NCBI RefSeq assembly: GCF_003334315.1
Contig: NZ_QOWR01000129.1
Direction: 5' to 3' (one strand)
DNA from: Escherichia coli
GTDB lineage: Bacteria; Pseudomonadota; Gammaproteobacteria; Enterobacterales; Enterobacteriaceae
Length of the DNA: 801 nt
Part shown: positions 1 to 801 of the stretch, one piece after another
Layout: the number at the start of each line of letters is the position of its first letter
How positions within the stretch are numbered: position 1 is the first letter of the stretch
Translations under genes and position numbers: made by a program
The notes under the pieces: model-generated
Seen by the model: only the letters and a program-made list of their open reading frames with translations
Database searches by the model: none
What the model was told of the DNA's origin: nothing

Positions 1-149
1 GGTTGAGAAGCGGTGTAAGTGAACTGCAGTTGCCATGTTTTACGGCAGTGAGAGCAGAGATAGCGCTGATGTCCGGCAGTACTTTTACCGTTACGCACCA
101 CCCCGTCAGTAGCTGAACAGGAGGGACAGCTGATATAAACAGAAGCCAC
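1..149 (-). CDS. insA: InsA (IS1 transposition regulator / N-terminal part of the InsAB' transposase), 5' partial: first 49 codons, continues off-window
   Basis: GTG start at 149..147 on the minus strand. Translation is (M)[48 protein letters not shown], open to the window edge. It contains the CxxC...CxxC zinc-finger pattern typical of InsA. The six-frame track misses it because the start is GTG and the ORF runs off the window. Confidence 0.9.
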
Positions 150-156
150 TGGAGCA

Positions 157-160
157 CCTC
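157..160 (-). promoter_or_regulatory. Shine-Dalgarno-like GAGG for insA
   Basis: GAGG on the minus strand, 7 nt upstream of the GTG start codon at 149..147. Confidence 0.5.
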
Positions 161-169
161 AAAAACACC

Positions 170-197
170 ATCATACACTAAATCAGTAAGTTGGCAG
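170..197 (-). promoter_or_regulatory. Putative insA promoter embedded in IRL (-35-like CTGCCA, -10 TATGAT)
   Basis: On the minus strand, TATGAT lies at 175..170 and a weak -35-like hexamer CTGCCA at 197..192, 16 bp apart. This is about 20 bp upstream of the insA GTG start. The insA promoter is known to sit partly inside IRL; exact hexamer assignment here is my inference. Confidence 0.4.
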
Positions 198-204
198 CAT
201 CACC
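182..204 (-). repeat. IS1 left terminal inverted repeat (IRL), about 23 bp
   Basis: Reverse complement of 182..204 is ggtgatgctgccaacttactgat. It is an imperfect inverted match to 349..371 (ggtaatgactccaacttattgat), as expected for the IRL/IRR pair of IS1. Confidence 0.9.
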
Positions 205-348
205 CGCCGTCTCAATAGCCCGGTTGTTGTATTTAATCAATACAGCCTGAAGACGTTCTGAATATTTCCTCTCCTGCACTACATTGTTTTTTGTACGGGA
301 CTGGATACCGTCATTAATCAGTTTTTCCAGCAGCTCTACCGCCAGATT
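205..348 (-). pseudogene. 144-bp internal gene fragment, in frame with no start or stop; tentatively a type I restriction enzyme R-subunit (HsdR) C-terminal remnant, truncated on both sides by IS1
   Basis: Minus-strand translation from 348 to 205 is NLAVELLEKLINDGIQSRTKNNVVQERKYSERLQAVLIKYNNRAIETA (48 codons, no stop). The ...SERLQ...KYNNR.I... pattern matches my recollection of the conserved C-terminal region of HsdR proteins. The HsdR assignment is from memory, not a search. Confidence 0.45.
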
Positions 349-371
349 GGTAATGACTCCAACTTATTGAT
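349..371 (-). repeat. IS1 right terminal inverted repeat (IRR), about 23 bp
   Basis: ggtaatgactccaacttattgat at 349..371 is the imperfect inverted partner of the IRL at 182..204. The insB stop codon (366..364) lies inside it. Confidence 0.9.
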
Positions 372-801
372 AGTGTTTTATGTTCAGATAATGCCCGATG
401 ACTTTGTCATGCAGCTCCACCGATTTTGAGAACGACAGCGACTTCCGTCCCAGCCGTGCCAGGTGCTGCCTCAGATTCAGGTTATGCCGCTCAATTCGCT
501 GCGTATATCGCTTGCTGATTACGTGCAGCTTTCCCTTCAGGCGGGATTCATACAGCGGCCAGCCATCCGTCATCCATATCACCACGTCAAAGGGTGACAG
601 CAGGCTCATAAGACGCCCCAGCGTCGCCATAGTGCGTTCACCGAATACGTGCGCAACAACCGTCTTCCGGAGCCTGTCATACGCGTAAAACAGCCAGCGC
701 TGGCGCGATTTAGCCCCGACGTATCCCCACTGTTCGTCCATTTCCGCGCAGACGATGACGTCACTGCCCGGCTGTATGCGCGAGGTTACCGACTGCGGCC
801 T
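364..801 (-). CDS. insB: InsB (C-terminal catalytic part of the IS1 InsAB' transposase), 5' partial: reading frame open to the window edge, stop at 366..364
   Basis: The track ORF 364..741 ([16 protein letters not shown]...[15 protein letters not shown]) matches IS1 InsB. The same frame stays open upstream of that Met to position 801 ([25 protein letters not shown]...), as expected because InsB is expressed as a frameshift fusion to InsA and not from this ATG. Acidic residues in DEQWGYV, MTDGW and RIERH are consistent with a DDE-type catalytic triad (exact residue assignment inferred). Confidence 0.93.
786..801 (-). CDS. insA: 3' end of insA of copy B (last 5 codons plus stop), overlapping the insB frame
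   Basis: Minus strand from 800 reads ggc cgc agt cgg taa = GRSR-stop, the InsA C-terminus (...LKNSGRSR). The TAA stop is at 788..786, in the 0 frame relative to the -1 insB frame. The fragment is very short, so confidence is moderate. Confidence 0.6.

Follow-up and report, generated by a model that had tools for sequence, protein, structure and literature searches.

An 801-nucleotide stretch of Escherichia coli DNA (hereafter the window) raises the question of whether the small differences between its two partial IS1 copies and the reference IS1 sequences mark a divergent isoform, as an initial annotation made from the sequence alone had proposed, and how two copies of the element came to lie side by side. 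IS1 is among the best-studied bacterial insertion sequences, and the differences can be set against a well-described background.

The window consists of the ends of two ordinary IS1 copies around a 144-base piece of an hsdR gene. Its features are collected in Table 1. The copies have the same orientation and are 144 bases apart, and the limits of the spacer between them coincide exactly with the IS1 termini. Because copy A is visible from IS1 position 1 to 204 and copy B from 316 to 768, the two parts have no position in common, as the initial annotation had pointed out; positions 205 to 315, which contain the frameshift region, fall outside the window in both copies, and both are read from partial sequence. 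Two weak repeats link the spacer to copy B, one direct (317-341 / 398-422, 25 nt, 76%) and one inverted (236-252 / 535-551, 17 nt, 82%), and both are of chance-level size and identity.

Table 1. Features of the 801-nt window, with the corresponding IS1 positions where these apply.
Feature	Window coordinates	Strand	Remarks
IS1 copy A, left part	1..204	-	IS1 positions 204 to 1; runs past the left edge of the window
Spacer, internal fragment of hsdR	205..348	-	non-IS1, 144 bases
IS1 copy B, right part	349..801	-	IS1 positions 768 to 316; runs past the right edge
IRL of copy A	182..204	-	inverted-repeat pair 182-204 / 349-371, 23 nt, 78% complementary
IRR of copy B	349..371	+	same repeat pair; identical to IRR of IS1A-E
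insA 5′ part, codons 1-49	3..149	-	GTG start at 149-147; includes the zinc-ribbon domain
insA codon 5, TAT (Tyr)	135..137	-	IS1 position 69 A = window 136
insA codons 21-24, GGT AAA AGT ACT	78..89	-	IS1 118, 124, 127 = window 87, 81, 78
insB 3′ part, DDE catalytic domain of InsAB′	364..801	-	stop TAA at 366-364
insB codon AGG (Arg) in YAYDRLRK	672..674	-	IS1 position 444 G = window 673

Members of the IS1 family are about 768 bp long, have imperfect terminal inverted repeats of about 23 bp, carry an A6C motif for the -1 frameshift that joins insA and insB′ into InsAB′, and produce a target-site duplication of 8-9 bp. The inverted-repeat feature is present here as IRL GGTGATGCTGCCAACTTACTGAT and IRR GGTAATGACTCCAACTTATTGAT, both of which are identical to the ends of IS1A-E of E. 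coli K-12 MG1655. Positions 1-49 of copy A are the same as in IS1A-E and in the IS1 of plasmid R100, and within positions 1-55 IS1D alone deviates, at position 50. The zinc-ribbon feature is present in the insA fragment of copy A (window 3-149, minus strand; Pfam Zn_ribbon_InsA, E = 3.2e-21), and the insB part of copy B contains a 125-aa orf (364-741, minus strand) that aligns with positions 7-131 of the 131-position Pfam model DDE_Tnp_IS1 (E = 3.2e-74). InsA is a repressor and InsAB′, made by -1 frameshifting, carries out transposition; insertion of IS1 leaves duplications of 8-9 bp, and the element can also cause adjacent deletions (PMC12428005, PMC10569738).

Both parts were compared with the six annotated IS1 copies of MG1655 (IS1A-F) and with both IS1 of R100 (NC_002134). 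Copy B, over its visible 453 bases, is a canonical, widespread IS1 of the R100 or 'IS1B family' type. It has no difference from either R100 IS1 over IS1 316-768, that is, from the classical source of IS1R (annotated by PGAP as 'IS1-like element IS1B family transposase', WP_095033700.1), and none from a common chromosomal copy (locus L019) whose transposase has the same accession. Matches of at least 99% to copy B were found in 7,589 E. coli records. Among the K-12 elements, copy B differs from IS1B/C at one position (704, where IS1B/C have A, encoding Gln, and copy B has T, encoding Leu in SVELHD), from IS1D also at one (631), and from IS1A/E at three (393, 396 and 444; 99.3% identity). The last of these is the residue to which the initial annotation had drawn attention: the motif YAYDRLRK is indeed encoded in copy B, and the YAYDSLRK against which it was contrasted is correct for IS1A and IS1E, in which position 444 is T (AGT, Ser), but not for IS1B, IS1C, IS1D or either R100 IS1, which have G and YAYDRLRK as copy B does. 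The serine is therefore specific to IS1A/E and not a general feature of InsB.

Copy A, in contrast, failed the same test of exact identity to R100 IS1. The readings TAT (Tyr) at insA codon 5 and GGT AAA AGT ACT at codons 21-24 were accurate, and the TCT and GGC AAA AGC ACC given for comparison are correct for MG1655 IS1A/IS1E and for both R100 IS1. In an ungapped comparison over 204 bases, copy A differs from IS1B/C at three positions (69, 118 and 124), from IS1A/E and R100 IS1 at four (the same three and 127), and from IS1D at four (the same three and 50). Thus R100 IS1, with C at 69, 118, 124 and 127 where copy A has A69 (Tyr5), T118, T124 and T127, shares with it the IRL and all of positions 1-204 save four bases. 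The only amino-acid change is caused by C69A, which replaces Ser5 of InsA by Tyr, three residues ahead of the first zinc-ribbon cysteine; position 69 is C in IS1A-F and R100 IS1 alike. The changes at 118 and 124 are silent, and T127 is common to IS1B/C/D. No exact match to copy A was found among IS1A-F and the two R100 IS1; copy A could still correspond to another curated ISfinder type, such as IS1G, IS1H, IS1N, IS1S, IS1SD or IS1X1-X5. Recombination with IS1F was considered as a source of the copy A changes and ruled out, as IS1F has C at 69, 118 and 124.

Beyond the named references, the 204-base string of copy A is present without a difference in independent complete E. coli chromosomes. 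Identity is 100% in the 25 genomes listed and at least 99% in 296 records, and the exact matches include two Tyr5 elements at other chromosomal sites, L002 (NZ_CP032237 1113707-1114474) and L001 (NZ_CP033401). Copy A belongs to a rare IS1 sub-lineage, defined by C69A and two silent changes, that already exists in sequenced E. coli chromosomes. Its rarity is apparent from the InsA protein: the Tyr5 form (P0002; NCBI accessions from several species) was found on 58 contigs, in multiple sub-variants and contexts, and the Ser5 form on at least 1000. The exact string was absent from the best 5,000 plasmid records, the top match being 99.0% identical. The recurrence of an identical 204-base string in independent genomes indicates that the differences of copy A are not sequencing noise. 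Errors of sequencing or assembly in a standard IS1 have nothing specific in their favour beyond the general difficulty of insertion sequences in short-read assembly, and the probability of this explanation is practically negligible, given that all three changes occur together in complete genomes (L001 and L002) and that the same Tyr5 protein has been deposited from several species; the exact matches effectively refute it.

The proposed divergence has to be judged against the variation that is usual in IS1. Of 768 positions, IS1A of K-12 differs from IS1B/C at 9, from IS1D at 9 and from IS1F at 73, and the same numbers of pairwise differences among IS1A-F have been published (PMC12428005). IS1 copies of clinical E. 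coli with 96-100% identity to the ISfinder reference are still reported under its name (PMC10569738). Over the visible parts, identity to IS1A-E and R100 IS1 is 98.0-98.5% for copy A and 99.3-100% for copy B. By the ISfinder convention, an isoform is assigned to a named reference at a nucleotide identity above about 95%; the visible parts of both copies pass this threshold for the IS1A/B/R group. The nearest named K-12 type to both parts is IS1B/C, with three differences from copy A and one from copy B, and it resembles the window copies in having Arg in YAYDRLRK and ACT at insA codon 24. IS1A/IS1E are the same element with the same ends, at 98.0% identity to copy A (four bases) and 99.3% to copy B (three bases, including the Ser to Arg difference at IS1 444). 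The divergent iso-IS1 of K-12, IS1F, has the same family features and organisation but differs at 23 of 204 positions from copy A and at 42 of 453 from copy B.

Given the internal variation of K-12 and the clinical range of 96-100%, the term 'divergent isoform' overstates the case. For copy B it does not apply, as exact identity to a known isoform, which the initial annotation had named as grounds for abandoning the idea, was found with R100 IS1 and the common 'IS1B family' copies. Copy A is unmatched among IS1A-F and R100, yet is a minor variant. The differences in the window thus suggest a divergent isoform only weakly, and we infer from the comparisons that they represent normal IS1 microheterogeneity, produced by point substitutions and by recombination between copies, rather than a divergent or new isoform.

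R100 IS1 (L020 21225-21992) and K-12 IS1B (L005 364-1131) differ by two bases, at 127 and at 704 (Gln to Leu in InsB), and both have Phe at InsA residue 81. IS1B, IS1C and IS1D of K-12 are reported to transpose hardly at all, for which the L81F change in InsA is suspected (PMC12428005). Yet in the collections searched no other IS1 is as widespread as that of the R100 type, its Phe81 notwithstanding.

Whether copies A and B are the same variant was approached with a chimeric query, in which copy A, the middle of IS1B (205-315) and copy B were joined and searched against 5,426 complete E. coli genomes. No full-length IS1 matching both parts was found in these genomes, the best being 99.6% identical, with three mismatches. 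From the absence of such an element in the collections searched, the copies are probably different variants, and on the simplest reading copy B would belong to the common type and copy A to the rare Tyr5 lineage. It could be proposed instead that both are copies of one unrecorded IS1 isoform with a Tyr5 left part and an R100-type right part, which transposed twice into hsdR. Nothing inside the window contradicts this, the visible parts being non-overlapping, and the known Tyr5 element at L002 is only three bases away, differing from copy B solely at positions 759-761 in the IRR. Still, it is unlikely, for such a 768-base element is what the complete genomes failed to yield, the exact copy A string is missing from the best-matching plasmid records, and the Tyr5 lineage seems hardly to move, with the L002 type found at much the same place on the map in about seven genomes.

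The spacer identifies the site of the insertions. It corresponds to codons 879-926 of the 1044-codon hsdR gene that encodes WP_001531245.1 ('type I restriction endonuclease subunit R' in the PGAP annotation), with the reading frame kept, and its translation, NLAVELLEKLINDGIQSRTKNNVVQERKYSERLQAVLIKYNNRAIETA, begins at residue 879 of HsdR. The full 144-base spacer is present exactly in the hsdR gene at L003 (4001). This hsdR gene was found in 61 of the 5,426 complete E. coli genomes; over window positions 205-346, identity is 100% in the 25 genomes listed and at least 99% in 59 of these 61, and no plasmid match to these positions was found. The fragment has the orientation of both IS1 copies. 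An in-frame piece of hsdR flanked by two direct IS1 elements implies that the gene is broken by both, and it is highly probable that the window derives from a chromosomal hsdR gene cut by two IS1 facing the same way, of which copy B is R100-type and copy A is of the rare Tyr5 type. This arrangement could be the product of two separate insertions of IS1 into hsdR, or of a single insertion and a subsequent IS1-mediated rearrangement. The target-site duplications predicted for the two elements are CGCCGTCTC for copy A and CGCCAGATT for copy B.

The double-IS1 arrangement was absent when the whole window was searched against complete E. coli genomes and PLSDB, where the top matches stitch the two IS1 parts of the window onto a single IS1. 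Neither junction was found as an exact pattern in species-representative genomes or metagenome contigs, nor was the one junction that was looked for in viral contigs; a 256-base junction-spanning query detected neither junction in complete E. coli genomes (best coverage 59%, from intact hsdR only), the 33-aa junction orf had no exact match in a protein look-up, and none of ten places encoding Tyr5 InsA that were examined is the window locus. This failure to find either junction in any collection searched might be taken to mean that the succession of IS1, 144 bases and IS1 is an assembly artefact, in which a short unique hsdR piece was given IS1 sequence, collapsed or in consensus form, on both sides, so that the apparent copies are mixtures of several genomic IS1; assembly often goes wrong where a short unique segment lies between repeats. 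However, the two parts are each identical to real elements from end to end and contain no mixed or ambiguous positions; the spacer ends exactly where the IS1 termini begin, as in real insertions; and a consensus of collapsed copies should carry the common state at positions 69, 118 and 124, at which copy A has the rare one. An artefact is very improbable on these grounds, and a genuine double interruption of hsdR is the preferred reading.

L002 is a full-length, 768-base Tyr5 IS1 (annotated by PGAP as 'IS1B family'), and L001 is a degenerate one of 735 bases with a 33-base internal deletion. The exact form of L002 was found in two genomes only, and five others have near-identical copies at a similar map position (1.10-1.23 Mb). 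At 3759-3761 of L002 (IS1 759-761) there is a 3-base variant of the IRR, GGGACC in place of GGAGTC, and the same variant is found in the IS1F-like copy of L010 and L016 and in L001 and L013; this sharing suggests that the full-length Tyr5 element of L002 is itself a mosaic. L010 (2946-3713 and 5362-6131) and L016 (2946-3713 and 5368-6137) each carry two IS1, one Tyr5 and one IS1F-like, about 1.65 kb apart, and L001 (3001-3737) and L013 (2946-3714) each carry a single hybrid IS1 whose outer flanks are those of L010 and L016. The relationship looks like the outcome of recombination between the members of a direct IS1 pair, which may serve as a precedent for the pair in the window. In L009, an IS1F-like copy (2169-2938) and a Tyr5 copy (2946-3699) lie head to tail with seven bases (GGGCATC) from IRR to IRL, a near-abutted tandem.

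Three type I hsdR genes that are unrelated to one another have a Tyr5-type IS1 adjoining them or close by, and they make up three of the about five distinct contexts seen. The first is that of the window (1-348); the second is represented by L001 (3001-3800) and L013 (2946-3775) together with L010 and L016, with 47% amino-acid identity to the HsdR of the window; and the third by the Klebsiella-type loci L011-L018 (2756-2946), with 35% identity to it. That these are remnants of a single locus was ruled out by the identities of 47% and 35% and by the differing positions and orientations. A change near the first zinc-ribbon cysteine of InsA could in principle affect recognition of DNA or of a partner, but there is only a slim chance that the Tyr5 lineage has an altered target preference. 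The coincidence with hsdR is much more likely to be due to chance, to a few old insertions having been passed on vertically, and to insertions being tolerated or selected in restriction genes that are dispensable and were acquired horizontally.

For the IS1 family, the window offers nothing new in kind, and variation by a few bases among IS1 copies is routine; the Tyr5 sub-lineage to which copy A belongs could be of use for marking strains or lineages. For the strain, disruption of hsdR would be expected to inactivate restriction, and the direct IS1 pair could recombine, with loss of one copy and of the 144-base scrap of the gene. The loss of restriction through double interruption of hsdR by IS1 may raise the receptiveness of the strain to foreign DNA.
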